From positions 119,724,001 to 119,788,000 of the forward strand of contig NC_086097.1 in the NCBI RefSeq assembly GCF_963921235.1: 64,000 bases of DNA. The letters are read 5' to 3'. The translations under genes were made by a program, and so were the position numbers. Within the stretch, counting starts at the first letter, position 1. Every line of letters starts with the position of its first letter. The notes beneath the pieces were generated by a model. The model was given only the letters and a program-made list of their open reading frames with translations, was not told the origin of the DNA and made no database searches. Positions 9,301-63,925 of this stretch are shown one piece after another. The DNA comes from Mobula hypostoma (taxonomy: Eukaryota).

Positions 9301-9616
9301 TCTTCAGGTGGAAGTCTTGGAAATGGGAACATGTGATTTGCTCAAAGCACAACACAAGGACATTGGGGGAGTGACTTTTGGATCAAGGTTGTTCCCCAAG
9401 CTCAGTTCAAAAACACAAGAGCGAATGCAATGCTCCTACTCACACTGTTCCTCTTCACGTTTTCTTCAATGAGCTCTATCAAGAATCAGGACAGAAACAG
9501 ACTCTCCAATGCACATCTTGGCCAGTGCCTCAGGATTGCCACAACAGAATACAGGCCCGACATCAGAAATATTGCCTCAACCCATCACTGTTATTTCTCT
9601 CACTGATTGGTGAGTG
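6395..9616 (+). pseudogene. hAT transposase pseudogene (GTF2IRD2/SPIN-like), split by CR1 at about 7818-9180
   Basis: BED-type finger CLIC..LKRHFNIMH; DDE-region motifs SLPMDSSCD, VSVVTDGA, FHCIIH, HWLSKG; frameshifted. Confidence 0.88.
7818..9180 (-). mobile_element. Young 5'-truncated CR1 LINE with open RT frame
   Basis: Uninterrupted frame with QHGFVKGKSCLTNL, VYLDFQKAFDKV, GVPQGSVLGP, KFADDTK, RPHLEYCVQFWSP; 8-nt microsatellite tail (atagaaac)n at about 7818-7842. Confidence 0.95.
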
Positions 9617-10761: not shown

Positions 10762-11000
10762 TGATGCACTATCAATTACTCCCAAAGACTGGAAGTAGAG
10801 TAAATACTGAAAGGCTTTTATTAACAGTAAATGGACCAACGTCCATGCTGTGTCTGTCCTGGACCGAGGGAGGAGCAGTGACACAATCGCCTTTGTTCAG
10901 GGGTCTGTGGGAGGAGCCACAGGAGCAGTCAGCAGAGGGGCGTGTCCAGACATGTCCAGACAGGTAACCCAGTTACAACATATATACAAGGTTTACCACA
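10762..11000 (-). repeat. 3' LTR (239 bp)
   Basis: Direct repeat of 14967-15207; about 6 substitutions plus one 2-bp indel by eye. Confidence 0.95.
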
Positions 11001-11069
11001 TTCACCCCTCCTTTTTTTAAAAAGAGTCCTGCGGGGTGAAGTGACTGACAATATTTACAAGAAGTATAT

Positions 11070-14000: not shown

Positions 14001-14941
14001 CTTTGGTCGAGGGTCATGGAGGCCAGAGTTGAGTCGCTGTCTTGGTCTGGCACGGTGGGGTGCCTAGTGAGCACCCATGGGTTGTAGGCGGTGAGAGGTG
14101 GCGCCGACCAAGATGCCTGCCCCCATGTCTCGCACATGATGGCGGTGTGCAGGCAAGATGGCGACCCCCATGTCTCGCACGCAGCGCTGCTGGATCCCGC
14201 TCGCGGTTTGGACTTACAGGCCTTGGCGAAGTGGCCCTTCTTTCCGCAGCTGGAGGAGGTAGCTTCTCGGGCCGGGCAGCATTTCTGGGGGTGCTTTTCG
14301 AGTCCACAGAAGTAGCACTTTACGGACCCGCGACTGGCAGCAGCCGTGGTCGATTCACCAGTGGGTTGCGGGGTCTGCGGCGTCCACGAGGCCGTCGGGA
14401 GATTACGTGCTGGGCGAGCGTCAGAGTTGTGCAGAGCAGCCTCCAGCGTGTCGGCCAGCTCAATCGTCGAACGTAAGGTAGGATCGGCGTGTTCCAGCAG
14501 CCGCTGGCACACATACACTGACCTGGTCCCCGTGACGAAGGCGTCTCTTACTAGGAGCTCCACATGCTCTTCGGCCGTCAGCCCCCCGCAATTGCAGGCC
14601 CGCACGAGTGTCTGTAGGGCCCAGACGAACTCAGCGCTCAACTCTCCGGGCCGCTGCTGCTGCGTCGCTAAGCTATGTCGCACATAGACGGTGTTTACCA
14701 GCCGCAGGTATTGTCTTTTGAGGTTGCTCATCACACCGTTGTAGCTCGGCTGGTCTCTAATCATTGAGTAGACCTGTGGACTGACCCTGGAGAGGAGAAC
14801 TCTGCGCTTCGCGGTGGGCTCGATCACTTCAATCTCCTCTCGGTATGATTCGAAGCAGGCCAGTCAGAGTTTGAAAGCGTTTCTGGCTTCAGGTGTTTGC
14901 GTGTCGAGTTTTAACTTGTCGGGTCTCAGAACGTTTTCCAT
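11070..14941 (-). pseudogene. gag-pol polyprotein pseudogene
   Basis: ATG at 14941; CCHC knuckles CYFCGLEKHPQKCC and SSSCGKKGHFAKAC; protease LFDMGS; RT IDLKSAYYQ, PFGVTNG, YLDN; RNase H EKEAQ, LLTDQ, DALSR; integrase CQVC, IDFKGP, IHSDRGSSF, GNGQVE; in-frame stops and frameshifts. Confidence 0.93.
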
Positions 14942-14966
14942 GCCTTAAAATTACTGTTAATAAAAT

Positions 14967-15207
14967 TGATGCACTATCAATTACTCCAAAAGACTGGAAG
15001 TAGAGTAAATACTGAAAGGCTTTTATTAACAGTAAATGGACCAACGTCCATGCTGCATGTCTGTCCTGGACCGAGGGAGGAGCAGTGACACAATCATCTT
15101 TATTCAGGGGTCTGTGGGAGGAGCCACAGGAGCAGTCAGCAGAGGGGCGTGTCCAGGCATGTCCAGACAGGTAACCCAGTTACAACATATATACATGGTT
15201 TACCACA
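14967..15207 (-). repeat. 5' LTR (241 bp)
   Basis: Direct repeat of 10762-11000; AATAAA on the minus strand. Confidence 0.95.
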
Positions 15208-15464: not shown

Positions 15465-16062
15465 CACGAGGAAATCTGCTGATGCTGGAATTTCAAGCAA
15501 CAGACATAAAAGTTGCTGGTGAATGCAGCAGGCCAGGCAGCATCTCTAGGAAGAGGTACAGTCAACGTTTCAGGCCGAGACCCTTTGTCAGGACTAACTG
15601 AAGGAAGAGTTAGTAAGAGATTTGAAAGTGGGAGGGGGAGGGGGAGATTCAAAATGATAAGAGAAGACAGGAGGGGGAGGGATGGAGCCAAGAGCTGGAC
15701 AGGTGATTGGCAAAGGGGATACGAGAGGATCATGGGACAGGAGGCCTAGGGAGAAAGAAAGGGGGAGGGGTGAAGCCCAGAGGAGTATAGTGAGAGGGAC
15801 AGAGGGAGAAAAAGGAAAGAGAGAAAAAGAATATATATATATAATAATAAATAAATAACGGATGGGTACGAGGGGAAGGAGGGGCATTAACGGAAGTTAG
15901 ACAAGTCAATGTTCGTGCCATCAGATTGGAGGCTACCCAGACTGAATATAAGGTGTTGTTCCTCCAACCTGAGTGTGGCTTCATCTTGATAGTAGAGGAG
16001 GCCGTGGATAGACATATCAGAATGGGAATGGGACGTGGAATTAAAATGTGTGGCCACTGGGA
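15465..16062 (-). mobile_element. Penelope-like element 3' part: GIY-YIG C-terminus, pyrimidine-rich UTR and hammerhead terminus
   Basis: Minus strand reads PVATHFNSTSHSHSDMSIHGLLYYQDEATLRLEEQHLIFSLGSLQSDGTNIDLSNFR*. Confidence 0.85.
15559..15596 (-). ncRNA. Minimal type I hammerhead ribozyme motif (core has one mismatch)
   Basis: Minus strand TAGTC-CTGACAA-AGGGTCTCGGCCT-GAAAC-GTT-GACTG: stem I agtc/gact, CUGANGA-like box, short stem II, GAAAC, GUH. Confidence 0.6.
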
Positions 16063-17035: not shown

Positions 17036-20000
17036 CTTTTTCAATATTTTTATTAGTTTTCTACATAGGAGAATACAGAGTTCAAGAAAAGAGAAATATA
17101 TCCAATATATTATACTGAATCACACGTACAAACTCCTTACTCTATATTCATACAAATTGATTAATAATATTGAAATATAGTAAATTTATTATATAGGAAA
17201 AAATCTAACCCTCTACCAAGACCGAAACTGATTAGTAAAGAAGAAAAAGAAACAAAGTATATTATTAGCCATCATCTGTGCTTTAACGGCAAATCAAAGG
17301 TTTTGAAAATAGTTCAAAAAAGGTCCCCACAATGTTTGAACATCTTGATAGATTCAGAAATTGAACACCGAATCTTCTCTAAGTTTAAACATGACGTGAC
17401 ATCATGCAGCCATTGAACGTGAGTGGGCGGGATCGCATCTTTCCATTTGAGCAAGAGCGTCCTCCTAGCAATAAGAGAAATAAAAACTAAAATGTGCAAA
17501 TTAGATTTTTGCAAAATAATATCCTTTCCTCCAACAATACCAAATAAAGCGCTCAAAGGACTAGGCTTGAAATTTACTTTAAAAAGTACCGAGAAAGTTT
17601 GAAATACTTCTTTCCAATATTTTCCAAAAACTCAGGCATGTCCAAAACATATGAATGAGTGAAGCTTCTCCATTATTACATTTATCACAGTAAGGAGATA
17701 TATCCAAATAAAAGCGAGACAACTTATCCTTGGTCATGTGTGCCCTATGGGCCACTTTAAATTGTAAGAGAGAGTGGTGAGCACATAATGGTGAAGTTTT
17801 AACCAATTTAAAAATTTGATTCCAAGTTTCCTCAGAAATTGAAGTCTGTAAATCTTTTTCCTTGAAAGATTTTTAATTTTATCTAAAGGAACACTTCTCA
17901 TTCCCAGCAACATATTATAAATATTAGATATGGATCCATGAAAAAAAAGGTTTCAAATTAAAAATTATATCTAGTAGATTCTTATCAGAACTTTTAGGAA
18001 ATGTACATATTTGACACCGTAAAAGTCTCTTATTTCTAGCTATCAAAAAAAAAGAGTTTTGGGTAAGCTATATTTAGCTGATAGTTGCTCAAACAAAAGG
18101 AGACTTCACTCCACAAACAAGTCCTGGAAGCATTTAATACCTAATCTATCCCATTCTTTAAAAGCCACATCTATCATAGAAGATTTTTAAAAAATTAGAA
18201 AAAATGGGACTTGAAAGAGAAAATCTCAATAAGCCAAAGTATTTTCGGAATTGTACCCAAATTCTGATAGTATGTTTAACTACCAAATTGTCAGTTAACT
18301 TACTCAGGGATAAAGGAAGTGAAGATCCAAGAAGTGAAATAATAGAAAATTTATTAACAGAGTTAGCTTCTAAAGAAACCCATCTCGGACAATCCTCACG
18401 ATTAATGCAATATAACCAAAATGTAGGATTATGTATATTAACTGCTCAATGATAAAAACCTAAAGTTTGGTAAAGCTAGCCCTCCATTCTTTTTAGCTTT
18501 CTGAAGACGAATTTTGTTTAGTCTAGAATGCTTATTTTTTCCATATATAGGATGATATAATAGAATCAAGAGAATCAAGAATTGCCTGAAAAAGATATAT
18601 AAATTTAGGTAAAATATTCATTTTAATAGAATTAATTTGACCAATCAATGATAACGAAAGAGGCGACCAATTTGATAGTCTCCTTTTTACATAATTCAAT
18701 AGGGTAAGAAAATTTTCTTTAAATAAGCACTTATATTTTTTAGTAATTGTTATACCCAAGTAAGTAAGTTGGTTTCTTACAATTTTAAAAGGAAGGTTAG
18801 AATTAGTTGATATCCAAATATTCAAAGGAAAAAGTTCACTCTTATGTAAATTCAGATTATAGCCTGAGAACTGGCTAAAACAGGAGAGTAAAGAAAGCGC
18901 ATGGGATAACGAAGTTTCGACATTAGAAATAAAGAGTAGTAGATCATCTGCACAGAGCAAAACTTTGTGGATAGTGCCTCTCCTTAGAATACCGGTGACA
19001 TCATTAGATTCTTGAAAGGCTATGGCTAAGTGCTCTAAAGCCAGATCAAAAAGCAAAGGACTCAACGGACAGCCTTATCTGGTGCCACATTGAAGCTTAA
19101 ATGGTTTGGAGTTCTGAGAATTAGTAATAACCCTAGTGGAGGGAGCAAAATAAAGTAACTTATTCCATTGAATGAAATCAGGTCCGAAATTGAATTTTTC
19201 TAAAATTTTAAATAAATAATTCGATTCAATTCTGTCAAAAGCCTTCTCAGCATCTAGGGATACCACACATTCTGGTATCTCCTTAGAAGGAGAATAGATA
19301 ACATTTAATAAATGACAAATATTAAAATGAAAATATTAATTTTTGATAAATCCAGTCTGATTATCAGAAATGACAGATGGTAAAATATTTTTAATCCTAT
19401 GGGCCAGAACTTTAGATACAATCTTAGTATCAACATTAAGTAAAGAAATTGGTCTATAGGAAGAGCATTCAATTGGACCTTATTCTTTTTGAGGATAAGC
19501 GAAATGGAAGCCTCACAGAAAGATTGAGGCAGCCTGCCCAACTTAAATGAATCCGAGAAAACTGAACTTAAATGAGGTGTAAGCAGTGAGGAAAAGGTCT
19601 TATAAAACTCTCCAGAAAATCCATCTGGACCTGGAGCTTTCCTCAAATGCAATGAGCGCACAGCCTCGACAATTTCCTCAAAAGAAATAGATTGTTCCAA
19701 CTGCTTTCTGTTGTCAGAGATTGTGGGAATGTTTAATTGATCTAAAAAAATGTTCATTACAGTGTCATCCTTAGGAGAGTCAGAGCTATAGAATCTGGAA
19801 TAAAATTCTCTATAGGTATAATTTATTTGTAAATGATCAGTTGTCTTATCACCGTTAGCTTTACGTATTTTTTAATCTGCTGTTTAGCTATGAAGGTTTT
19901 AATCTGATTAGCCAATAAGTTACCTGTTTTGTCTCCATGAATATAAAATTGACTTTTATCTTTTAGGAGTTGAGTTTCAATTGGATAAGTTAAAAGGAGA

Positions 20001-22314
20001 TCATATTTAGTTTTAATTTCAACACACCTTTTATGTAAAGCAGGATCTGGAACCAGGGCATCCTGTTGGTCTAATTGTTTCAACTGGTTAGCTAAATCAC
20101 TTTTTCCTTTATTAGCTTTTCTCTTAATACTTGCTGTATAAGAAATAATTTGTCCTCTAGTATACGCCTTAAAGGCATCCCATTTGATAAGACTGGAAGT
20201 GTCCTCTAACGTATTCTCCTCAAAAAAAAGAGTAACTTGTCTCTCCATAAACTTTAAAAAGTCTTTATCAGATAACGAAGTTAGATTAAAATGCCAAAAC
20301 CTGTTTGTTTGAAGAAGGCCAGGGAGATTTAAAGATAAGAACACAGGAGCATGATCTGAGACAACAGTCTCTTTATATTCACAGGATCAAACTAATGGAA
20401 CCATTTGGCTATCGATAAAAAAGTAATCAATCCTGGAATAAGTATGATGGACATGAGAGGAAAACGAATATTCCCTGACTACTAGATAAAAAGAAATGCC
20501 AAACATCAACAATACCACATTTCATTAGAAACAATTTAGTAAACACAGCTGATTTATTTGGTATCACTAGTTGAGAAGATGAACGATCTAAAGCTGGATC
20601 TAAACAACAATTAAAGTCTTCTCCCATCACCAATGAGTACAGATCTGGCAAAAATGGAAAAAAAAAACGCTCAAAGAAGCCTGGGTCATCTCTATTTGGA
20701 GCATGCACATTGGCAAATAACATTAATTTGTTATCTAACTTCCCTGAAACGATAATAAAATGCCCATTAGTATCAGAAATTACTTTATTTTGAACAAAGG
20801 AAACTTTATTATCTATAAGGATCGAAACGCCTCTAGCTTTGGCCTAAAATGAAGAAGGGAAATGAGAATCTCTCCATTAATTAAAAAGGTGTGAAATGTC
20901 ACATTTACGTACATGAGTTTCTTGAAAAAAAAACAATTGGTACCTTAAGTTTTTTTAATATAGGCAAAAATCTTATTTCTTTTCACAGGGTGATTTAGCC
21001 CTTTCACCTTAAAACTAAGTAAATTAATACTTTGATCCATTTAAAAACTATTTATAAGAAAGATTAAAGTAACAATCAAAAGGATGTATATTAAACCCAA
21101 ACAACAAACCTTGAGATATGGTAACTAGGCAACAGAGTTGACTAAATTTCCAAATCAGCTTCAAGAAAAAAAGAACTCCCCATCCCCCTCCTTCCTCCCA
21201 AAGAAAGAAAATTGGCTAAAAGGCAGCTGACGCCTACCCCCACTAATATCATCCCCCCAGAAAAGCCTGCTGGAACTGCTCCCAAGAATTCAAGGTTGAT
21301 TGCTGTTCCAACCGAGACAAAGCAAAATGCAGGAAAAAAATAAGCTTATACAGTTTTATCAAACAAAAGAAGCAATTTTTCATACTGAAAAATATTAAGC
21401 AGTTATATTTCTAAGTCTAAAAATTTCTGAGTCTCTTCATTTGTAAGAAGCCATTTCTTTAAGCCATCTTGCATTGTAATTCTCAGCTGAGCTGGATAGC
21501 GAAGAGAATGCTTGAAGTTTTTGCTATAAAGTTCCGCCATAACTTTCTTTAAACTTAGCGCGTTCTTCCATAACTTCCGATAAGAAATCTTCAACAATAC
21601 GAATCTTCTGACCTTTGTAGTCAATCATACCTTTCCGACGGGATTCACAAATCGAAAGGTCCTTTGTTTGAAATTCATGAAAACATAAGATGACGAATCT
21701 TAGTCTTGATTCTGAAGTCGATCTATAAATAGGCGATCTGTGAACACGATCAATCAAAGGTAAAGACTGTATAAAATCATGGAATTATTCCATCAGAAGG
21801 TTTGCAAAGAATTCCTTTGGATTATCTCCTTCCATTAACTCTTTAAGTCCCAAGATTCGTAAGTTGTTTCTCCAACTTCGATTTTCCAAATCAATAATCT
21901 TCAGTCTCAGTTTTCCATTAGACTTGGATTGTTTTTCATACAGCTTTTGCAGATCATCAGTTTTCTTATCTAGTATTATAATCTCTTCATGCTCTTTTAT
22001 CCTCTTATCATGCTCGATTAAAGTTTCTTGAATAACATCCAGTTTTGTACTTATTTGTTTGACTTCAAAGCTGATTTGTTGTGAATCGACCAAAATTTCT
22101 TTTCTGAACTGATGAAACTCCTTGGTAAGATTTTGCGAGTCTGTAGAAAGCTTTTGAAGCAGGCCTGTAATAGATGCCAAAGCTGTTTTGGTAGCCATAG
22201 TAAGATAATAACACATTTAACAGTAATATTTCAAAAAGTTGGAAACAAAAAAGGAAGTAAGCTAGGAGCACCAGGAAAGACCTGTTACTCCATCAGCGAC
22301 CAGCAGTCAAGTCC
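17036..22314 (-). mobile_element. Full-length decayed L1-clade LINE
   Basis: ORF1 coiled coil with DLENRSWRNNLRILGL and IDRVHR; ORF2 NVHAPN, KAPGPDGF, SLDAEKAFDRI, SPLLFDL, CADDLL, CDKC..HMFWTC; A-rich tail; 10-bp TSD tctatgtttt (17026-17035, 22315-22324). Confidence 0.93.
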
Positions 22315-31039: not shown

Positions 31040-31765
31040 TCCACAAATTCCACCATCTCCGAAGAGCTTTCTACTGGGATCACTCCCTCCAGGCACTTAT
31101 CCCTGCAAGTGGCCCAACTGGTACTGCTGCCCGTACACCTCTTCCCTCACCTCTGTTCAGGGTCCCAAGCCGTCCTTCTAGGTGATGCAGTCCTGCAAAT
31201 CTGCTGTGGTCATCTATTGTGTCCAATGCTCCTGATGTGTCCTCTTCTACATTGGCGAGATGCATTGTAAATTGGGAGACTGCTTCATCAAGCACCACCG
31301 CTCCATTTGCCACAAGCAGGACTTCCCTGTGGCCAAACATTTAAATTCCAAATCCCATTCAAATGTGTCGGTCCATGTCCTGCTCATGTCAGGGTAAAGG
31401 AGCAGTACTCTATATCCTGTTTGAGCAATTGTCAACCTGATAGCATGAGTATCGATATTCCTTCTGGTAATCAAATTCCCTCTGACCTTTTACCTCTTCT
31501 TACCCTGCCTATTACTTTTCCCAGGGTCGTCTCCTCCTTCCGTTTTTCCCCCCGTGTGGTCCACGCTCCTCTCCAGCCCTTGACATTTCCCACCCACCTG
31601 AATTCACCAATCACCTTCCATTTATCCTCCTTCCCCTCCCCACCACCTTTTTATTCTGGCATCTTCCCCCTTCCTACACAGTCTTGAGTAAAAGTTTGAG
31701 TCCAAAATGTCAACTATCTATCAATTTCCTTAGATGCTGCCTGACCTAGCAAGTTCCTCCAGCAT
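31040..31765 (+). mobile_element. Penelope-like element, decayed GIY-YIG region plus terminus
   Basis: VIYCVQCS*CVLFYIGE (GIY-YIG motif), PVAKHLNS, followed by the terminal repeat. Confidence 0.75.
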
Positions 31766-32590
31766 TTGGCAGATGGAGTTTAATGCTGAAAAATGTGAGG
31801 TGCTATATTTTGGTAGGACTAATCAAAATAGGACATACATGATAAATGGTAGGGCATTGAAGAATGCTATAGGACAGAGGGATCTAGGAATAATGGTGCG
31901 TAGTTCCCTGAAGGTGGAATCTCATGTGGATAGGGTGGTGAAGAAAGCTTTTGGTATGCTGGCCTTTATTAATCAGAGCATTGAGTACAGGAGTTGGGAT
32001 GTAATGTTGAAATTGTATAAGGCATTGGTAAGGCCAAATTTGGAGTACTGTGTACAGTTCTGGTCACCGAATTATAGGAAAGATGTCAATAAAATTGAGA
32101 GAGTACAGAGGAAATTTACTAAAATGTTGCCTGGGTTTCATCTCCTAAGTTACGGAGAAAGGTTGAACAAGTTAGGTCTTTATTCTTTGGAGCATAGAAG
32201 GTTGAGGGGGGACTTGATAGAGGTGTTTAAAATTATGAGAGGGGTTGATAGTTTGATGTGGATAGGCTTTTTCCATTGAGATTGGGGGAGATTCAAACAA
32301 GAGGACATGAGTTGAGAGCTAAAGGGCAAAAGTTTAGGGGTAACATGAGGGGGAACATTTTTACTCAGAGAGTGGCAGCTGAGTGGAACGAGATTCCAGC
32401 AGAAGTGGTTGAGGCAGGTTCGATGTTGTCGTTTAAAGTTAAATTGGACAGCTATATGCACAGGAAAGGAATGGAGGGTTATGTGCCGAGTGCAGGTCAG
32501 TGGGACTAGGTGAAAATAAGAGTTCGGCATGGACTAGAAGGGCCGAGATGGCCTGTTTCCGTGCTGTAATTGTTATATGGTTATATATAT
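31766..32590 (+). mobile_element. CR1 LINE 3' end
   Basis: WQMEFNAEKCEV, RPNLEYCVQFWSP, RGDLIEVFKI; same subfamily and tail as 61535-63925. Confidence 0.92.
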
Positions 32591-42125: not shown

Positions 42126-44136
42126 CTGTATAATACAACATGAAGGCAGCAAATAAGGTATTTCTTTAAATCTGTATTGCTTTTAATTTTCAAGCATTAC
42201 AACCGGAATTAATACTTTGAGAGTTGTGGAGAATTTCTCAATAGAGCAGTAAAACATAATGTTGGTACAGCTCCTTCTGCTTCGCCACCTTCAAACTAGC
42301 TGCTGATAATCATTATCACACTCTGACATCAGTGTCTAATCAAAACCTGAGCTGTATTTGCAACAGAAACACTGGATCCCATACTAGATTGTCTAAATAT
42401 ACCAGATAAATTATAGTCATCACTATTATAAACAAATCCAAAGCAACATGCACAAAATGATGGAGGTTCTTAGAAGGTCAGGCAGCATCTGTAGAAAGGA
42501 ATAAAAGAGTCGACATTTTGGGCTGAGGCCCTTCTATTTCAGTGCACAAAGAAAAAGCAAAAATAACTATTGTCTCATTCACAAAAAAAACTTAATTGGC
42601 TCCTGTACACAGTCAAAAAATTGAAAAGTTTCAGCTGAACTCTATTTCAAATGTAAGATAAAACAAGATCAGAGAAAATTATAGTTACTCTCAGCTAATA
42701 TATTACTAATGGCTAAGCAATGGTATTACCTATTTGGCTATTTATTGGCCTCAGATGTATCCTCTCAACTTATTATAAAGAGTAGGTCAAAATTAATTGG
42801 GTAGTAACAAGCTTCTAAATTATTTTCAGTTTTTTTCTAAACTTTCAGTCCAATTATCCGATTGCTTTTTAAATCTACAAACAGTATTCAGTGTGACAAA
42901 AGACCAAGTTATCAGAAGATTAATGCCGATAAGAGAGACAATGGGGAAACATTCAAAATGCTAATATGAGAGACGAAAGAGATTAACAAAAAGAGACACA
43001 GTTCCGAGTATTGTCAGACCGGTTGCTTTGAACCTGAACTGTTTGAAGTTTGATAGACAGGCGATACCCCAGTAGGGGGATGAAAGGAACAGGTTCGCTA
43101 AGGCAAGTGACACACCACACACCACGACACCATGAGATAACAAGACCCTGGAAGTGCGTTGTGCACCCCCCCCCCCACCACAAGTTGGTGGAAGTTTTGG
43201 CGGTCTGTCCGTGGGACCGACCATAGACACACAGGGTGGAAAGGTACGATCGGCGGGAACCTGGTGTGCGTGTTGTTACGAGAATACACATAAAATTAAG
43301 ATGTTTGCTGGCCTGGGCTAGCATCAGTGGCATCAGCAGTTGGTCTGCCACCTGCCCTCAGGGGAAGGAGAGATAAGGAACAATGGAGCAGCGTCTGGAG
43401 ATGTGTAATGAAGGGATGTGGGAGAGAGAGCTGTCTGGAGCGGCTCCCCCCTTTGAACCCTGAACTGTTTGAAGTGATGGACAGGCGATACCCCAGCAGG
43501 GGGATAAAAAGGGACAGGTTCGCTAAGACAGACACACACGCCACCCGAGGTAACGAGACCCTGGAAGCGGTACGCTTCTCACGAGTGGGTGAGAAGTACC
43601 AGACAACGACCAGGGTGGAAAGGTACGATCAGCGGGAACCCGGTGTGTGTCCGCCCTTGCCTGGGTGCCGGGTTCACTGCAGAGGATCGACCGCATCTGG
43701 AGGAGGGGTCACAGTCGGTGACCTCAGGTGACATCACCAAGGACCCGCCCAAATGCTGTTGGTGAGCCATCCCGCTGGTCTGTGAGTGAAGCCGTTCTGA
43801 ATGATCAGTTGTTCCTATTCTATCTCTCTCTTCCCCCACCTTGTCCATCGCCATGGCAACGATTACTGCGAACTGAACTACAAACTGGACTGAACTTTGA
43901 GTCATTTTGAAATTGGTCATTTACCCCTAGACAACGATAGAGCTTGATTGATGCTGTTATCTTAATTCTGTGCACATGTGTGGTTATCATTGTTGAATTG
44001 TTGCATTTATTATCCTTTCGATTAATGTGTTGCTTGTTTCTTTAATAAAACTTTCTTAGTTCTAGTACTCCAGACTCCAACTGAGTGATCCATTTCTGCT
44101 GGTTTGGCAACCCAGTTACGGGGTACGTAACATAAG

Positions 44137-44157
44137 TGGGGTTCTCGTCCGCGATTT
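44137..44157 (+). promoter_or_regulatory. Primer-binding site, tRNA-Pro-like
   Basis: tggggttctcgtccgcgattt, 4 nt after the LTR, versus canonical Pro PBS TGGGGGCTCGTCCGGGAT. Confidence 0.8.
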
Positions 44158-44231
44158 TGAACGCTAAATTTGGGACGGAGTAAATTGATTGGGTTAAAAT
44201 TCCCGAAAGAAAGAAAAGACAAACAGCAGAA

Positions 44232-47159
44232 ATGGAGGTTGAGGAATTTATAAAGGCGCCGACCTAGGAGGCATTAGAGGATGCCAGGAAATCGGAATTG
44301 ATAGCTGTGGCCAAACGGGTGAATTTTGCTAAGGTGAAGTCGACAATGAGGAGAGAGGAGATACACAGAGCTATTGTAGAGCACTATGTATCTAAAGGTG
44401 TGTTTCCCCAAGGTGAGCTGGGGGAGGTGTCTATTGAAAAACCTGCTGGAGACGCGGTACAGGTACAGCTTGAAAAACTGAGACTCGAGCACGAGTTCCG
44501 GGTACGGCAGTTAGAACACGAAGAGAAGCAGTTAGAAAGGCAAGAGAGAGAGTTAGAAAGGCAGGAGAAAGAGAGAGAGTTAGAAAGGCGGGAGAAAGAG
44601 AGAGAGTTAGAAAGGCGGGAGAGAGAGAAAGAGGTAGAAAGGCAAGAGAGAGAAAGACAGTTGGAGAGAGAAGAGAGAGAGAGGGACAGACAGTTGGAGA
44701 GAGAGGAGAAACAGAGGGAAAGGGAATTTGAGCTGGAGAAGTTAAAGATAAGGGCCGAGCAGGGGCTCGTGCCGAACCAAGGTGGAGGGTTCCGGGCGAC
44801 CCAGGAGGTTAGGCTGGTTCCCCCATTTGACGATACCGATGTGGATCGGTACTTCCTCCACTTCGAAAAGGTGGCTATAAGTCAGGAATGGCCGAGGGAT
44901 AAGTGGGTTGTTTTACTTCAGAGTGTACTGAAAGGGAAAGCCCAACAAGCTTACTCCGCTTTATCCGCCGAAGATGCCCAGAAGTATGAGGTGGTGAAGG
45001 AGGCCATCCTCAGGATTTATGAGTTGGTCCCGGAGGCATACCGGCAGAGGTTCCGGAATGCGAGGAAGCGGTGGGACCGCACGTATTTGGAGTTTGCTCG
45101 TGAGATGCAAACATATTGTGAGCGTTGGTGCGCCTCGAAGGGGGTAGAGGGGGATTATGACAGACTGCTGCAACTGATTCTGATTGAGCAGTTTAAAGGT
45201 TGTGTCCCTGAGGGTATGAGACCCTACCTCGATGAGAAAGAGGCAGCCACGTTAGCCGCAACTGCTAAGTTAGCGGATGAGTATGCGTTGACGCATAAAA
45301 TGAAGGTTGCCCCGAGTAAAGGCTACCAGAAGGGTAGTCAGGACGGCGGGGAGAGTCCGCCGGAAAAGTCAGAAAGTAAGCCGGGGACTAGTGAAAAGGA
45401 TAAGGTAGACCGGGAGCAGTCTGGTAGGAAGTCTCCTGGGGTCGTCTGTTATAATTGTGGGAAAGTCGGACACTTTACGTCCAGGTGCTTTGCCCCAAGG
45501 AAGGAGACGGGGAAAGGAAAAGCGGAAATTTTGAATGGCTGTATTGAGCTGTTAAGCGAACCGCTAGGGAAGGACAGGTCTGAAAAAGTCCAGGAAGGGC
45601 GCGAGAGGTTTATCTCGGCCGGACTGGTGTCAGTGAAGGAGAGGTTAAAACCAGTTCCAGTGCGGATCTGGAGAGACACGGGAGCGTGTCAGTCACTAAT
45701 ACTGAAGAGTGTATTAGAGTTTAGCTCAGAGACCCAGACTGGGGAGGTAGAGGTCAAAGGTGTTGGGGAAGGGACAGAGTCGGTCCCTTTGCACCAGATA
45801 CATTTACAGAGCAACCTGGTCTCTGGACTAGTCACGATCGGGGTGAGGTCCGAATTACCGATGAAAGACGTGGAAGTCTTGCTCGGTAATGACATCGCCG
45901 GAGGAATCGTGTTCCCAGTCGTGAGATTGACGGGTCAGCCTGCCAGCATGGAGGCCCCGCCCGCGATGGTGAATTTGGCTGAAACATTTCTGCCAACCTT
46001 GTATGAGACAGGGTGTAGTGAGATAAGTGGTAGTGAGGGAGCTGGGACGGACGTAGCAGTAGCCGGGAAAGAATTTGTGCAGACGCAGGAGCGAGACGAG
46101 GGGCTGATGGGTTTTGCAGAGACAGCTCTCTCTGACACAGCCTTGACAAGGGAACTAGTAGGCTATTGTGCGGATGAGGAAGTGCTAAGGAAGAAAGGGA
46201 AATCAAGTACAGTATCCGCAGATGAGGAGTGGGGGGTGGTGCAAAAGAGTTATGGGGATGAGGTTTTTAACATGGCCCACGAGGTACCCCCCGGTGGACA
46301 TTTTGCGGTGCTGGAGGAAACAGTTGGTGGAATCATGAAAGAGATTTACCGGCTGCCCAGGGGGAAGAATGTTATTGATCATGACCGACGCGAACTGAGA
46401 CGGTCACCGGCTTTTGATATGCTAACAAACCTGGTCGGTGTTAGCGTGGAAATCAATGAAGCTAGGGGCCCCCTGCTAAGAGAAAAAAACCATTTTGAAA
46501 AGATTAGGATGGGATCGGTCAGATGGGAGAAGGCTATTGTGTTGGCCAGATCTACTGATAAGGTCTCTCCCTTAATCCCCGAAGGAGTAATTAAACGACT
46601 CGCACCCATGTGTTTGATTGTCCCGAGGAAATGCAAAGAACTGGGACGTTGGGTGATTGTGGTTACAATAGGGCAGCCAAGTAAACAACACCCATATTTT
46701 TTGAGTAATTCAGTGACTAAAGGGCTGATGAACACAGAGGTGTGTATTGGCAATTTAACACGGCTGTCTGAAGCCAGCGTGATAGTGAGCCTTGGAAAAA
46801 ATGAATTCGGCCACACGAAGGTCACTTACCTGGGAATTGTGGTGACACAGGGGCAGCTGGCAGTGATGCAAGCTACAGTGCAGGCTATCGCTGACCTCCC
46901 AACCCCGACAGACAAGAGGGCCCTCAGAAGGCTCTTGGAGATGGTGGGGTACTGCAGGAAGTTTTGCAATAACTCTGCGGTCAATACCCGTCCCCCTCCT
47001 ACTAAGCCCTTGCGAGAGAAAATTGAGTCGGAATGGGACGACCCTTGTTGTTGTGGTCCGGGACAAAACCAAATGAGAGGTTACATTGGTCGCAATTCAT
47101 CAGTGTTTTTGGCCACTATGAAGTTTGCTAAGTTGGAGCCTGGTCTAAGGGATTATTAA
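44232..47159 (+). CDS. Gag (coiled coil, SCAN-like capsid, CCHC knuckle) - protease - vestigial INT/RT/RH polyprotein
   Basis: 953 open codons from 44298; upstream ATG 44232 is followed by TAG at 44265 (TTG in the outer copy); motifs YELVPEAYRQRFR, LILIEQF, CYNCGKVGHFTSRC, WRDTGA, LLGND, AHE..GGHF, QPSKQHPY, VTYLG, MVGYCRKF. Confidence 0.85.
44515..44735 (+). repeat. Coding tandem repeat (LERQ/REKERE)n, E/R-rich coiled coil
   Basis: Repeated gagttagaaaggc..gagagagaga units; shorter array at 49060-49200. Confidence 0.85.
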
Positions 47160-48352
47160 TAACACGTGTAAAAGGAACAGAAAATGTGATGACTGTCTGT
47201 CAAGGTGTTGACAGCTTCAAATTCTCTGTATTAGCCAAATAGCTGTTAAAGATGTATATTGTGTATGTATCAGATAATGTAGTCATGTTTGTAATTTTTA
47301 CCTCCCGGTAAAAATCCTTAAAGGGGGGAAGTGTTACGAGAATACACATAAAATTAAGATGTTTGCTGGCCTGGGCTAGCATCAGTGGCATCAGCAGTTG
47401 GTCTGCCACCTGCCCTCAGGGGAAGGAGAGATAAGGAACAATGGAGCAGCGTCTGGAGATGTGTAATGAAGGGATGTGGGAGAGAGAGCTGTCTGGAGCG
47501 GCTCCCCCCTTTGAACCCTGAACTGTTTGAAGTGATGGACAGGCGATACCCCAGCAGGGGGATAAAAAGGGACAGGTTCGCTAAGACAGACACACACGCC
47601 ACCCGAGGTAACGAGACCCTGGAAGCGGTACGCTTCTCACGAGTGGGTGAGAAGTACCAGACAACGACCAGGGTGGAAAGGTACGATCAGCGGGAACCCG
47701 GTGTGTGTCCGCCCTTGCCTGGGTGCCGGGTTCACTGCAGAGGATCGACCGCATCTGGAGGAGGGGTCACAGTCGGTGACCTCAGGTGACACCACCAAGG
47801 ACCCGCCCAAATGCTGTTGGTGAGCCATCTCGCTGGTCTGTGAGTGAAGCCGTTCTGAATGATCAGTTGTTCCTATTCTGTCTCTCTTCCCCCACCTTGT
47901 CCATCGCCATGGCAACGATTACTGCGAACTGAACTACAAACTGGACTGAACTTTGAGTCATTTTGAAATTGGTCATTTACCCCTAGACAACGATAGAGCT
48001 TGATTGATGCTGTTATCTTAATTCTGTGCACATGTGTGGTTATCATTGTTGAATTGTTGCATTTATTATCCTTTCGATTACTGTGTTGCTTGTTTCTTTA
48101 ATAAAACTTTCTTAGTTCTAGTACTCCAGACTCCAACTGAGTGATCCATTTCTGCTGGTTTGGCAACCCAGTTACGGGGTACGTAACAGTGTCTGCCCTT
48201 GCCTGGGTGCCGGCTTCACCGCAGAAGAACGATCGTATCCGGAATGGAGGGGTCATAGTCGGTGACCTCAGAAGACATTACAAAGGGCTCGCCCGAAAGC
48301 TAACTGCGAGGAATATCAAAGTTCTGTTTGAATCCGATTTGAATATCATCAT

Positions 48353-48392
<40 letters not shown>

Positions 48393-48776
48393 CAACGGCA
48401 CAACACCGATTACTGCGAACTAAACTGAACTGAACTCTGTGTCACTTGAGACTGATCATTTTACCCCTAGACTACGATAGAGCTTGATTGATCCTATTAT
48501 CCTGGTTCTGTGTACATGTGTGTTTTATCATTGCTAACCTGCTGCATTTATATCCTTATGATTGGAGTACTGTGTTACTTATTTCTTTAATAAAACTTTC
48601 TTAGTTCCAGTAATCCAGACTCCAACTAAGTGGTCCATTTCTGCTGGTTTGGCAACCCAGTTACAGGGTACGTAACATAAGTGGAGTTCTCGTCCGGGAT
48701 TTTGAATGCTAAATTTGGGACGGGGTAAATTGATTAGGTTAAAATTCCCAAAAGAAAGGAAAGGCAAACAGCAGAA

Positions 48777-51700
48777 ATGGAGATTGAGGAATTTCTAAAG
48801 GCGCCGACCTTGGAGGCATTAGAGGATGCCAGGAAAGCAGAATTGGCAGCTGTGGCCAAACGGTTGAATCTTTTTAAGGGGAAGTTGACAATGAGGAGAG
48901 AGGCGATGCACAGAGCTATCATAGAGCATTATGTGTCTAAAGGTGTGTTTCCCCAAGGGGAGCTGGAGGTGATATCTATTGGAAAACCTGGTGGAGGCGC
49001 AGTACAGGTGCAGATTGAAAAATTGAGACTCGAGCATGAGTTATGGGTAAAGCAGCTAGAACACGAAGAGAAACAGTTAGAACGGCAAGAGAGAAGAGAA
49101 GCAGTTGGAGCGAGAAGAGAGAGGGAGGCAGTTGGAGCGAGAAGAGAGAGAGAGGCAGTTGGAGCGAGAAGAGAGGCAGTTGGAGAAACAGAGGGAAAGG
49201 GAATTTGAGCTGGAGAAGTTAAAGATAACGGCAGCGCAGGGGCCCATGCCGAACCAAGGTGGAGGGTTCAGGGCGACCCAGGAGGTTAGGCTGGTTCCCC
49301 CATTTGACGAGACCGATGTTGATCGGTACTTTCTCCATTTTGAAAAAAGTTGCTGCAAGTCAGGACTGGCCGAGGGATAAGTGGGCTGTTTTGCTTCAGA
49401 GTGTACTAAAAGGAAAAGCCCAACAAGCTTACTCGGCTTTGTCTGCAGAAGATGCCCAGAGGTATGAGGTGGTGTAAAGGGCCATACTCAGGATTTATGA
49501 GTTGGTCCTGGAGGCATACCGGGAGAGGTTCCGGAATGCGAGGAAGCAGTGGGGCCGCACGTATTTAGAGTTTGCCTGTGAGCTGCAGACATATTGTGAG
49601 CGTTGGTGCACCTCGAAAGGGGTCAATGGGGAATATGACAGACTGCTACAGCTAATCCTGATTGAGCAGTTTAAAGGTTGTGTCCCTGAAGGTATGAGAC
49701 CCTACCTAGATGAGAAAGAGGTAGACACTTTAGCCACAACTGCTAAGTTAGCGGATGAGTACGCGTTGACACATAAAACGCAGTTTACCCCGAGTAAAGG
49801 CTACCAGAAGGGTAGTCAGGACGGCGGAGAGAGTCCGCCAGAAAAGTCAGAAAGTAAGTCGGGGACTAGTGAGAAGGATAAGGTAGACCGGGAGCAGTTT
49901 GGTAGGAAGTCTCCTGGGATCGTATGCTATAATTGTGGGAAAACCGGACACTTTGCATCCAGGTGCCTTTCCCCAAAGAAGGAGATGGGGGAAGGAAAAA
50001 CGGTGGTTCCAACTGGCTGTATTGAGCTGGTAAACAAACCGCTGGGGGAGAAGAGGTCTGATAAAGTTCAGGAAGGGCGCGAGAGGTTTATCTCGGCCGG
50101 ATTGGTGTCGGTGAAGGAGGGGTTAAACCCAGTTCCAGTGTGGATCTGGAGAGACACTGGAGCTTGTCAGTCACTGATATTAAAGAGTGTGTTAGACTTT
50201 AGTTCAGAGACCCAGACTGGGGAGGTCAGGGTCATAAAAGGCATTGGGAAAGGGACTGAAGCAGTACCTTTGCACCAAATACACCTAAAAAGTGACTTGG
50301 TCTCTGGACCGGTCACGATCGGGGTGAGGCCTGAACTACCGATGAAAGACGTGAAGGTCTTACTCGGTAATGACCTCGCCGGCGGAGAGGTGTACCCAGC
50401 AGTAAGATTGACAAGCCAGCCTGCCGGCATTGAGGCCCTGCCTATGGACTCACAGGTTTATCCCGTTTGCGCAGTGACTCAGCGTATGTCCAGAAAGGCT
50501 GCCGAATCTAATATAGATTTAGCTGAGATGTTTTTACCAGCCTTGTATCAGAAGGGGTTAGAAAGTGAGGAGCAGCGTAGTGACACGGAAATTAAGGTAG
50601 ATTTATCATTAGCAAGGAAGGATTTTATGCAGGCACAGGAGTGAGATGAGGAGCTGATGGTTTTGGTGGAGACAGCTCTCTCTGAAGCAGAATTAAAAAG
50701 GGAGCCAGTGGGCTATTGTGTGGAGGAGGGAGTACTAAGGAAGAAATGGAGACCAAGTACCATGCCCGCAGATGAGGAATGGGGGGTGGTGCCAAAAATT
50801 TATGGGGATGAGATTCTTAACCTGGCCCACAAGATACCCCTCGGTGGACATTTTGGGGGGGATGAAAACAGTCGGCGGAATCATGAAAGAGTTTTACTGG
50901 CCACACAGGAGGAAGGATGTTATTGACTATTGTAGATGTGAGCTAACACAGTTACAGGCTTTTGATATGCTAACAGCTTGCCACGATAGGCGAACAGACC
51001 TAGTTGGTGATATCATGAAAATTAGTGAGGCTAGTGTGTCACCTGATAAGGGGAAAACCCATTTTGAAAAGATAAGTATGGTGCCAACCAGATGGGAGAA
51101 GTCTATTGTTTTGGCCAGCTTTGCTGATAAGGTCTCTCCCTTAATCCCCGAACAAAGCGACCCGCTAAGAGAGCCAATTAAACGGCACGCACACGTATGT
51201 CCGGATGTCCCGAGGCGATGCAAAGAGCCGGGACATGGTGTTGTCGTCACATCAGGTCAGCCTAGTGAGCAACACCCCTATAGGATGATTAATTCAGTGA
51301 CAAAAAGGCTAAAGAACGCAGAAGCGTATATTGGCGATGTAGTGGTCTGGAGTGACACGTGGGAGGAGCACAGTGTGGCACTGGTTAAACGGCTGTTTGA
51401 AGCCAGCCTGACAGTGAACCTCGCAAAAAGTGAATTCGGCCACGCGAAGGTCACTTATATGGGATTTGTGGTAGGACAGGGGCAGCTGGCTCCGATGCAA
51501 GCTAAGGTGCAGGTTATCTCTGAAGTCCCCACCCCGACAGACAAGAGAGCCCTGAAAAGGTTCTTGGAGATGGTGGGGTACTATCGGAAGTTTTGCAAAA
51601 AAAAACTTTGTGGATATTATCCACCCTCTTACTAAGCCCTTGCCAAAGAATGCTAAGTTGGTGTGGGACGACCCTTGTTATCTGTGTCCGGGACGAAAAC

Positions 51701-51850
51701 CACTGAGAAGTTACACTGATCACAACTCATTAGTGTTTTTGGTCACCATGAAGTTTGCTAAATTGGAGCCTGGTTTTAGAGGATTATTAAAATAACACAT
51801 TTAAAAGGAACAGAAAATGTGATTGCTGACTGTCTGTCAAGGTGTTGCCA
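48777..51850 (+). pseudogene. Frameshifted gag-PR-vestigial pol of the outer element
   Basis: Colinear with the inner ORF; retains FYWPHRRKDVIDYCR, AYIGDVVVWSDTWEEH, YTDHNSL, HLKGTENVIADCLSR. Confidence 0.88.
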
Positions 51851-52788
51851 ACTTAAAGTTCTTTGTATTAGCCAAATAGCTGATGAACATGTATATTTGT
51901 ATGTATCTAATAGTGTACTCATGCCTATAATCTTTACCCAGGTAAAAATCCTTTGAAGGGTAGGGGTGTGACAAAAGACCAAGTTATCAGAAGATTGATG
52001 CCGATAAGAGAGACATTCAAAATGCTAATATGAGAGACGAGAGAGACTAACGAAAGGAGACACAGTTCCGAGTATTGTCAGACCGGTTGCTTTGAACCTG
52101 AACTGTTTGAAGTTTGATGGACAGGCAATACCTAGCAGGGGGATAAAAGGAACAGGTTCGCTAAGGCAAGCGACACACCACACACCACGACACCACGAGA
52201 TAATGAGACCCTGGAAGTGTGTTGTGCACCCCCCCCCCCCAAGTTGGTGGGAGTTTTGAGGTCTGGTTGCGGGAGCGACCATAGACGCACAGGGTGGAAA
52301 GGTACGATCGGCGGGAACCTGGTGTGTGTGTCCGCCCTTGCCTGGGTGCCGGGTTCACTGCAGAAGAACGATCGTATCCGGAATGGAGGGATCACAGTCG
52401 GTGACCTCAGAAGACATTACAAAGGGCTCGCCCGAAAGCTAACTGCGAGGAATATCAAAGTTCTGTTTGAATCCGATTTGAATATCATCATTCGCTCTCT
52501 CTCTCTCTCCCCCCAACGGCACAACAGCGATTACTGCGAACTGAACTCTGCGTCACTTGAGACTGATCATTTTACCCCTAGACTGCGATAGAGCTTGATT
52601 GATCCTATTATCCTAGTTCTGTGTACGTGTGTGTTTTATCATTGCTTACCTGCTGCATTTATATCCTTATGATTAGAGTACTGTGTTACTTATTTCTTTA
52701 ATAAAACTTCCTTAGTTCCAGTAATCCAGACTCCAGCTAAGTGGTCCATTTCTGCTGGTTTGGCAACCCAGTTACGGGGTACGTAACA

Positions 52789-61534: not shown

Positions 61535-63925
61535 TATAACCATAAAACCATATAACAATTACAGCACGGAAACAGGACATTTCAGCCCTTCTAGTCCATG
61601 CGGAATGCTTACTCTCACCTAGTCCCACTGACCTGCACTCTGCCCATAACCCTCCATTCCTTTCCTGTGCATATACCTATCCAATTTTTCTTTAAATGAC
61701 AATATCGAACCTGCCTCTACCACTTCTGCTGGAAGCTCGTCCCACACAGCCACAACTCTCTGAGTAAAGAAGTTCCCCCTCGTATTACCCCTAAACTTTT
61801 GCCCCCTAACTCTCAACTCATGTCCTCTTGTTTGAATCTCCCCCACTCTCAATGGAAAAAGCCTATCTACTTCAACTCTATCACCCACATAATTTTAAAT
61901 ACCTCTATCAAGTCCCCCCTCAACCTTCTACGTTCCAAAAAATGAAGACCTAACTTGTTCAACCTTTCTCTGTAACTCAGGTGATGAAACCCAGGTAACA
62001 TTCTAGTAAATCTTCTCTGTACTCTCTCTATTTTGTTGACATCTTTCCTAAAATTTGGTGACCAGAACTGTACACAATACTCCAAATTTGGCCTTTCCAA
62101 TGCCTTGTACAATTTTAACATAACATCCCAACTCCTGTACTCAAAGCTCTGATTTATAAAGGCCAGCACACCAAAAGTTTTCTTCGCCGTCCTATCCATA
62201 TGAGATTCCACCTTCAGAGAATTATGCACCATTATTCCTAGATCCCTCTGTTCTACAGCATTCTTCAATGCCCTACCATTTACCATGTATGTTCTATTTT
62301 GATTAGTCCTACCAAAATGTAGCACCTTACACTTATCAGCATTAAACTCTGTCTGCCATCTTTCAGCCCACTCTTCTAACTGGCCTAAATCTCTCTGCAA
62401 GCTTTGAAAACCTGCTTCATTATCCACAATGTCACCTATCTTAGTATCATCTGCATACTTACTGATCCAATTTACCACCCCATCATCTGGATCATTAATG
62501 TATATGACAAGCAACATTAGACCCAGTACAGATCCCTGAGGCACACCACAAGTCTCTGGCCTCCAACCTGACGAACAGTTGTCCACCACTACTCTCTGGC
62601 ATCTCCCATCGAGACACTGCTGAATCCATTTTACTACTTCAATATTAATACCTGATGATTGAACCTTCCATGTGGAACCTTGTCAAAGGCCTTACTGAAG
62701 TCCATATAGACAACATCCACTGCCTTACCCTCGTCAACTGTCCTAGTAACATCTTCAAAAAAATTCAATAAGATTTGTCAAACATAACCTTTCACACACA
62801 AATCCATGTTGACTGTTCCTAATCAGACCCTGTCTATCTAGATAATTATATATACCATCTCTAAGAATACTTTCCATTAATTTACCCACCACTGACATCA
62901 AACTTACAGGCCGATAATTGCTAGGTTTACTCTTTGAACCCTTTTTAAACAATGGAACAACTTGAGCAATACACTAATGCTCGGGCACCATTCCCGTTTC
63001 TAATGACATTTGAAATATTTCTGTCAGAGCCCCTGCTATTTCTACACTAACTTCCCACAAGGTCTTAGGGAATAAATATCCTGTCAGGACCCAGAGACTT
63101 ATCCACTTTTATATTCCTTAAAAGCACCAGTACTTCCTCTTCACTAATCATCATAGTTTCCATAACTTCCCTAATTGTTTCCCTTACCTTACATAATTCA
63201 ATATCCTTCTCCTTAGTGAATACCGAAGAAAAGAAATTGTTCAAAATCTCCCGCATCTCTTTAGGCTCCACACATAGCTGTCCACTCTGCTCTAAGGGAC
63301 CAATTTTATCCCTTACTATCCTTTTGCTATTAATATAACTGTAGAAACCCTTTGGATTTATTTTCACCTTACTTGCCAAAGCAACCTCGTATCTTCTTTT
63401 AGCTTTAATTTATTTCTTAAGATTCTTTTTACCTTCTTTATATTCCTCGAGCTCCTCATTTACTCCATGCTGCCTATATTTATTGTAGATATTTCTCTTT
63501 TTCTGAACCAAGTTTCCAATATCCCTTGAAAACTATGGCTCTCTCAAACTTTTAACCTTTCCTTTCAACCTAACAGGAACATAAAGATTTTGTACCCTCA
63601 AAATTTCACCTTTAAATGACCTCCATTTCTCTATTACATCCTTCCCATAAAACAATTTGTCCCAATCCACTCCTTCTAAATCCTTTCGCATCCCCTCAAA
63701 GTTAGCCTTTCTCCAATCAAAAATCTGGGTCCAGATCTATCCTTCTCCATAATTATATTGAAGCTAATGACATTGTGATCACTGGACTCGAGGTGCTCCC
63801 CAACACATACCTCCATCACCTGACCAATCTCATCCCCTAACAGGAGATCCAACACTGACCCTTCTCTAGTTGGTACCTCTATGTATTGCTGCACACATTT
63901 TACAAACTCCAAACCATCCAGCCTT
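61535..63925 (-). mobile_element. CR1 LINE, 5'-truncated (endonuclease end to 3' tail)
   Basis: LESSDHNVI, NYRPVSL, QHGFV, GVPQGSVLG, KYADDTK, RPNLEYCVQFWSP; tail atataaccataaaaccatataac. Confidence 0.93.

Follow-up and report, generated by a model that had tools for sequence, protein, structure and literature searches.

Structure of the inner element

The window, i.e., the whole stretch of 64,000 nucleotides from the devil ray Mobula hypostoma that was analysed (contig NC_086097.1, positions 119,724,001 to 119,788,000), is repeat-rich animal DNA and contains at 43274-48188 a long terminal repeat (LTR) retrotransposon, the inner element, which is inserted within the 5' LTR of another element at 42892-52788, the outer element. 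The inner element is a young LTR element nested in an older relative. Its LTR pair shows 4 mismatches in 857 aligned bases and one 2-bp indel, and the target site duplication (TSD) GTGT is confirmed by its presence in a single copy at the corresponding place of the outer element's uninterrupted sister LTR. Gag and protease are followed by remnants of pol, termed the tail, in a single open reading frame (ORF), and the copy belongs to a family of hollowed-out elements. All its features lie on the + strand:

43270..43273, +: left copy of the TSD GTGT (right copy 48189-48192; the outer 3' LTR represents the empty site)
43274..44132, +: 5' LTR (TGTTAC...GTAACA)
44137..44155, +: primer-binding-site-like stretch, assigned from the sequence and presumably an imperfect likeness of a proline-tRNA primer site
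44232..47159, +: one ORF for gag, protease and the pol remnants, of 975 codons with a TAG at codon 12
44502..44745, +: Glu/Arg-rich repeat in gag, with a number of units that differs, in frame, between copies
44790..45302, +: capsid with SCAN domain (Pfam stretch 45030-45299), dN/dS 0.20-0.26
45444..45488, +: CCHC zinc knuckle, intact
45600..45923, +: aspartic protease, dN/dS 0.17-0.23
45924..46388, +: linker and N-terminal integrase remnant (HH half of the zinc finger), up to junction 1
46389..46700, +: integrase end and spacer to QHPY, up to junction 2
46701..47048, +: palm/thumb remnant of the reverse transcriptase (RT) with decayed YxDD site, up to junction 3
47049..47123, +: RNase H scrap of 25 codons, in frame, up to junction 4
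47159..47218, +: RNase H C-terminus, out of frame 3' of the stop
47319..47331, +: polypurine tract
47332..48188, +: 3' LTR

The ORF starts with the ATG at 44232 and is interrupted by a TAG at codon 12 (44265-44267), which is followed by 963 open codons, ten more than the 953 counted in an earlier note made from the sequence alone, up to the TAA at 47157-47159. The TAG, also reported there, is private to this copy, because codon 12 is open in 14/14 other proteins covering that position. Downstream of the stop only one AATAAA is present, at 48100. In the tail of 410 codons the ORF frame contains 0 stops versus 32 stops in each of the other two frames. Annotated proteins of Mobula hypostoma match the gag-protease part at 93-99% identity. 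Profile searches identified the SCAN domain (PF02023, E 1.5e-12) and the zinc knuckle (E 3e-4) in the ORF, and no integrase-core, RT or RNase H family reached E 1. With the protease motifs DTGA and LLGND both in place, the impression of an intact gag and protease was borne out: capsid, zinc knuckle and protease are complete, whereas the integrase has lost its core and RT and RNase H are for the most part gone.

Origin from a complete Gmr1-like element

The nearest matches to the ORF are SCAN-INT-RT polyproteins (INT, integrase), and the nearest complete proteins are ~49% identical in gag-protease. The deletions were mapped against the complete Pristis protein P0145 (also P0137), supplemented by parent-type pieces from Mobula and Hypanus (P0011, P0167, P0009). 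On P0145 the remnants keep the order protease (PR)-INT-RT-RNase H (RH), and the distance from the protease motif to the end amounts to 426 aa in a hollowed copy vs 1024 aa in a complete Gmr1-like element. Five founding deletions are common to every hollowed copy that covers them. The first removes 5 aa ahead of the zinc finger. At junction 1, an in-frame loss of ~289 aa begins midway in the zinc finger and extends to the integrase end, DDE core included; at junction 2, 128 aa of the RT between QHPY-RM and RM-INSV are lost in frame at a shared Arg-Met dipeptide; at junction 3, ~87 aa from the thumb to the RNase H are lost, again in frame. The deletion at junction 4 (~47124) is short and shifts the frame 11 codons ahead of the stop. 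Three of the four in-frame junctions lie at repeated dipeptides (VV, RR, RM). This map shows that the hollowed family, as judged by alignment, derives from a complete gag-PR-INT-RT-RH element via these five deletions.

The map also refines what had been read from the letters. It holds that only the HH half of the integrase zinc finger and no DDE core is left, but the very end of the integrase and the pre-RT spacer are kept as well: residues 151-268 of P0161 align to P0145 1059-1176 (E 1.6e-11). The first 30 residues of this piece are weak when taken alone (0-9 of 300 shuffles reach the score on 5/7 targets, 15 and 30 on the other two). Its placement by MAFFT as part of the integrase core was overturned by pairwise tests in favour of the integrase end. 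The YxDD site was thought to be skipped; it is present and has decayed in steps, being whole in the parent-type P0167, without one Asp in the outer element and P0161 and without both in the inner element, and it is the helix following it that is deleted. RNase H scraps at the end were correctly recognised as far as the 25 in-frame codons are concerned, whereas at ~47124 the frame is broken: blastx moves from frame 1 to frame 3, and the true C-terminus at 47159-47218 lies 3' of the stop. Finally, the inner element indeed lacks 27+36 nt and 45 nt present in the outer one, all in frame.

Jumps over pol domains were also seen in 44/147 distant proteins and in P0026, P0092 and P0152. They were not used as evidence, because these are single gene models that may have introns drawn across stops.

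Copies and subfamilies

The defect is common to many dispersed copies. Hollowed copies lie on many different contigs of two Mobula species, and the deletion junctions, for which privacy to the two copies of the window had been named as a refutation, are shared among them. Of 26 Mobula RefSeq proteins, 11 have their last residues in common, a shifted end ~270 nt earlier is common to two others, P0003 and P0005, and the remaining 13 have their own ends. Contigs from four runs with three organism codes cover all 30 bins, and record 31 of run X9 spans the RT junction; contig depth was not used as a measure of copy number or expression. The tail tree is a ladder, in which P0161 is followed by P0162/63/65/64, by P0005/03 and by a young group including the inner copy, with identities to the latter from 58% to 97%. 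This shows that the hollowed family kept transposing through a ladder of subfamilies. Because near-identical LTRs and a TSD flank the gutted form, it moved after the loss of its enzymes, and recently, as had been proposed. In the tail (45924-47123) the inner copy sits on a branch some two to four times as long as that of the outer copy or P0161, which suggests many more replication cycles in the inner lineage.

P0003, P0004, P0124 and P0132 carry small indels in mosaic combinations, pointing to recombination between subfamilies. Moreover, the annotation treats P0002, P0128, P0132, P0167 and P0044 as host-gene isoforms (MACC1, UBE2G2, PPM1Lb, HSPB1-associated protein, mucin-6-like), which reflects either chimeric transcripts or annotation errors. 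Annotation of many copies as RefSeq genes, some of them as host-gene isoforms, is what selection at the level of the host on a domesticated gag-pol gene would lead one to expect. The copies, however, are many and dispersed, LTR pairs are fresh and accompanied by a TSD, the tree is ladder-like and most copies have private lesions. This does not fit a domesticated gene, and such an origin is highly improbable.

Selection on the encoded protein

The ratio of nonsynonymous to synonymous substitution rates (dN/dS) was computed from two DNA copies only, inner vs outer. It amounts to 0.20-0.26 in the capsid and 0.17-0.23 in the protease, to 0.7-0.9 in the gag N-terminus and nucleocapsid linker, and for the tail to 0.70 (confidence interval, CI, 0.52-0.98) at a transition/transversion ratio kappa of 1 and to 0.93 (CI 0.70-1.28) at kappa 3. 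The 161 transitions vs 94 transversions in the tail favour a kappa of ~3. Within the tail, values of 0.50-0.67 for the integrase-end/spacer part and 0.97-1.25 for the RT remnant were obtained. Differences distribute over the three codon positions as 80/87/85 in the tail and as 56/36/83 in gag-PR.

The same pattern is seen in columns at least 90% conserved among 24 complete elements. In the capsid 0/44 conserved vs 41/111 variable columns changed, and in the protease 1/24 vs 28/76 (p 0.002); in the RT remnant the numbers are 9/25 vs 12/44 (p 0.59) and in the N-terminal integrase remnant 9/19 vs 40/88 (p 1.0). The fraction of conserved columns retained is 0.91 in the capsid, 0.89 in the protease, 0.50 in the integrase remnant and 0.64 in the RT remnant. 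Furthermore, silent and missense run variants number 11 and 2 in gag-PR, but 5 and 13, with 0 stops, in the tail (p 0.003; the counts cover 31 of 40 listed variants, out of 298 in four runs, and leave out 6 single-contig rows and 3 rows behind the stop). A scan of the tail for a nucleotide-conserved element found none that is prominent, the longest identical run being 30 nt and 150-nt windows ranging from 71 to 85%. These data show that capsid and protease are under purifying selection and that the ~400-codon pol remnant is neutral in sequence and eroding.

This bears on a function of the tail protein itself in particle assembly or in interference with the enzymes of a helper, two of the reasons the earlier note had given for a translated tail. 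The frame is kept, a polyprotein would be packaged and the dN/dS of the integrase-end/spacer part is in line with such a role. However, dN/dS is near 1 over the whole tail, conserved columns are lost as fast as variable ones, the RT remnant evolves at 0.97-1.25, the tail was repeatedly eroded in frame, and a sister lineage in stingrays has a different tail. Because the amino acids of the tail evolve neutrally, assembly and interference are disfavoured, and we consider a functional tail protein improbable; avoidance of nonsense-mediated decay (NMD), the third reason, or another effect at the level of RNA or translation remains.

Retention of the reading frame

Despite this neutrality, the tail reading frame is held open except near its end. 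No stop in the tail is shared among the 26 Mobula proteins. In a neutral simulation 4.2 stops were expected on the inner lineage when half of the changes were assigned to it (P0 0.011) and 0 were observed; for both lineages together 7.6 were expected, at most one occurred in 1 of 1500 simulated runs, and 1 was observed, in the outer element. Relative-rate branches to the inner copy of 0.34-0.50 per site raise the expectation to ~6-8.

Indels were counted if common to two or more loci or runs. All 14 shared indels within codons 565-874 are in frame, vs a null of 0.33-0.5 (three founding, ten later and one 54-nt event in runs X1 and X9). Codons 875-975 contain 2 in-frame and 4 frame-shifting shared indels, the four shifts being at ~codons 875, 945, 953 and 964 (p 0.003, with a boundary picked afterwards). 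As controls, 1/12 indels in the LTR and 0/5 behind the stop are divisible by 3. Single-run joints of low depth were left uncounted; among them 3/3 with a known net length are in frame (174, 1248 and 78), as are 4/7 with unknown inserted letters. The lengths of shared indels are thus non-random modulo 3, and neither random lengths nor a fixed tail stop, either of which had been named as contradicting the proposal, was found.

In-frame deletions might also arise from microhomology at template switching in a lineage that was lucky or too young to acquire stops, with no selection involved. The founding junctions at repeated dipeptides and the ascertainment on open frames are compatible with this, and short direct repeats in the ORF form in-frame pairs in 39-60% of cases, 5-7-mers in 40-50%, giving a microhomology null of 0.4-0.5. 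Under this null the probability of 14/14 in frame is still only 1e-5 to 6e-5; several indels are single-codon insertions, 4-8 stops would be expected, and frameshifts occur freely behind and near the stop. An origin without selection is already strongly disfavoured.

The tail of the outer element carries one stop and two homopolymer length changes, and its gag one stop and two shifts. These tail lesions are taken as decay after insertion, because gag is equally hit and P0161 is open at those places. A third 'stop' in the outer element at 50558 was rejected as an alignment artefact over a gap.

Because the tail protein is unconstrained and yet shared stops and shared frameshifts are missing from the first 310 tail codons, selection appears to act on the frame and not on the encoded sequence.

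Translatability as the proposed target of selection

The explanation we favour, with a probability of about 0.65, is that a non-autonomous Gmr1-like LTR family of devil rays loses RNAs with early stops, so that in-frame variants found its subfamilies. The selected trait, as the substitution and indel patterns suggest, might be the fact of being translated and not the product of translation. In complete relatives gag and pol form one ORF; a stop inside the remnant is therefore premature, and the natural stop would lie only at the ORF end. An early stop or frameshift in the remnant would turn ~1.2 kb into additional 3' untranslated region (UTR), extending it from ~0.95 kb to ~2.2 kb, in an unspliced RNA that would serve as both mRNA and genome. 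Such RNAs might be lost by NMD triggered by the long 3' UTR or by a similar translation-coupled effect in cis. New subfamilies would then be founded by in-frame variants only, and shifts close to the stop would be tolerated. NMD was reported to target retroviral full-length unspliced RNA with a long 3' UTR (PMC2925335), and escape from it predicts a selection on the frame alone that relaxes toward the stop. As an alternative to NMD escape, near-complete translation might be coupled in cis to packaging. The element would supply its own capsid and protease, with RT and integrase being provided by a helper that shares its particles. The earlier note's observation was confirmed with three corrections, and its interpretation is supported and narrowed.

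Several points weigh against the loss of early-stop RNAs as the explanation. The window was chosen for its open frame and RefSeq proteins are ORFs by definition, so that stop counts are partly selected; likewise, the boundary at codon 875 was set after seeing the data, and the +1 at 47064 may be compensated by a second indel among 8 further rows. At kappa 1 the CI of the tail dN/dS narrowly excludes 1. In-frame founding junctions at repeated dipeptides may be mechanical in origin. The shift in P0003 and P0005 shortens the ORF by ~270 nt and yet reached two loci. NMD alone leaves unexplained why the tail was not simply deleted, and the mechanism is reasoned from sequence, runs X5-X8 being RNA by guess. 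Finally, a helper, i.e., a complete partner in Mobula, was not found among annotated RefSeq proteins, an absence that means little because repeats are poorly annotated. Only broken parent-type pieces came up: P0167 of M. hypostoma, which has parent-type RT and RNase H 77% identical to the outer element's remnant with the first catalytic motif altered, and P0011, which stops short within the integrase.

The family appears to be a clear example from nature of selection for translatability alone, in which a long ORF with dN/dS near 1 stands beside selected domains and untranslated controls of the same element. If RNA surveillance is the cause, NMD shapes which defective retrotransposons spread; since many natural copies exist, some with early stops and some without, RNA data alone would suffice to test this. 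Moreover, an extended open frame within a repeat does not prove that a functional protein is made, which is of relevance as several copies carry host-gene annotations.

Tail length and the stingray lineage

The main rival is a tether in cis that needs length: the tail would hold nascent Gag on its own RNA for ~400 more codons and thereby favour cis capture, with length and not sequence being decisive. The distance from LLGND to the stop is 422-437 aa in 7 devil-ray copies of full length and 414-437 aa in 4 copies from stingrays, and the fusion protein of mouse IAP 1-delta-1 was described to work in cis (PMC6466679, PMC7411935). Nevertheless, the devil-ray tail is ~50 codons shorter than at the stage of the outer element, two copies have tails of 356-359 aa, and in one X9 contig (joint 45840-47090, depth 14) a net 1248 nt between the protease end and the RNase H, nearly the whole tail, are missing in frame. 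Matching lengths in only two lineages may also be chance. A length-dependent tether is accordingly regarded as unlikely.

The stingray lineage (Hypanus, Hemitrygon; P0010, P0012, P0013, P0015, P0017, P0018, P0023, P0134) has gag-protease followed by a decayed in-frame duplicate of the region from the capsid end to the protease. In 8/8 proteins tested this duplicate is 22-30% identical to residues 117-400 of P0009 (E 3e-4 to 6e-11), and 4/6 aligned copies from two genera share one C-terminus. The tail is slightly less conserved than the lineage's own capsid (0.54-0.81 vs 0.70-0.90, proteins only). An open tail with content unrelated to that of devil rays was counted in support of selection on the frame. 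It is conceivable, though doubtful, that the tail is a sequence-free, length-tuned translational device of ~420-440 codons which couples translation of the parasitic RNA to its own packaging and which evolved in rays on two occasions, once out of pol remnants (devil rays) and once out of a gag-protease duplication (stingrays).

Relation to known elements

Gmr1-like Ty3/Gypsy elements are characterised by a SCAN capsid, the order PR-INT-RT-RH and one ORF (10.1101/2025.03.03.638093). The hollowed family shares all of these as well as LTRs, polypurine tract and short TSD, and differs in being without the catalytic core of integrase, RT and RNase H. The catalytic enzymes by which an autonomous LTR retrotransposon is defined are thus absent.

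Coronavirus and arterivirus defective interfering (DI) RNAs are reported to need translation and not sequence (cf. van der Most 1995, Kim 1993 and Molenkamp 2000). These are short-lived laboratory RNAs of cytoplasmic viruses, whereas the hollowed family is a germ-line element spanning two ray species. The evolutionary signature of the IAP 1-delta-1/DI-RNA type, an ORF that is kept while the encoded sequence is free, is present in the hollowed family. Like it, IAP 1-delta-1 is non-autonomous and has one fused ORF resulting from internal deletion; it is reported to be highly active, with translation helpful in cis (PMC6466679, PMC7411935). It is a betaretrovirus-like endogenous retrovirus in which a single deletion of 1.9 kb extends across gag and pol, and Gag has to be supplied in trans. 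In contrast, gag and protease of the hollowed family are whole and selected, five founding and at least 11 later indels are involved, and the neutrality of the tail was measured.

Among plants, non-autonomous LTR families that combine GAG/PROT with a decayed pol are described as common, and 15 sugar-beet families keep decayed pol pieces (PMC13570524). TR-GAG and similar families likewise keep gag/protease without the enzymes (PMC13570524); TR-GAG elements are defined as keeping gag, in some cases protease, and nothing else of pol, whereas 400 codons of INT/RT/RH remnants are kept in the hollowed family. The available part of that article does not mention frame retention, and the plant lineages are usually not Gmr1-like. 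In Rous sarcoma virus the natural gag stop is shielded by an RNA stability element (PMC2925335); the solution proposed for the hollowed family would be to have no early stop. The literature searched, which excluded subscription journals, Repbase, Dfam and supplements, contained no earlier description of this family and no LTR element in which selection on the frame alone had been measured.

The outer element and further repeats of the window

The outer element is an older member of the same hollowed family:

42892..52788, +: outer element
42892-43273 and 48193-48677, +: outer 5' LTR, split by the inner element
48678-51966, +: outer internal part, interrupted by stops (49475, 50641) and several frameshifts
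51967-52788, +: outer 3' LTR

A TSD was looked for at both ends of the outer element (42892, 52788) and none was found. Its right end (52788) adjoins the middle of a repeat (partner 15864-16053, inverted), which is not resumed on the left. Because of the missing TSD and a repeat present at the right end only, the outer element is probably a recombinant of two copies or has lost a flank. Dating it by its LTRs was dropped, given the lack of a TSD and the unequal halves (24/363, 16/457). At their starts the inner and outer LTRs do not align, over 177 nt in the inner one (43274-43450) and 123 nt in the outer one (51967-52090); the promoter-side LTR end was therefore replaced between subfamilies.

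A further LTR element lies at 10851-15207 (- strand), with 150-nt repeats that are 97% alike and broken ORFs, which, judging by their motifs, look like gag, protease, RT and then integrase. Presumed fragments of long interspersed nuclear element (LINE)-like RT and a transposase-like fragment are found among 7918-9303, 18532-20386, 31734-32586, 61542-62682 and 7066-7554, and two of the LINE-like RT fragments form an inverted pair of 90% identity.

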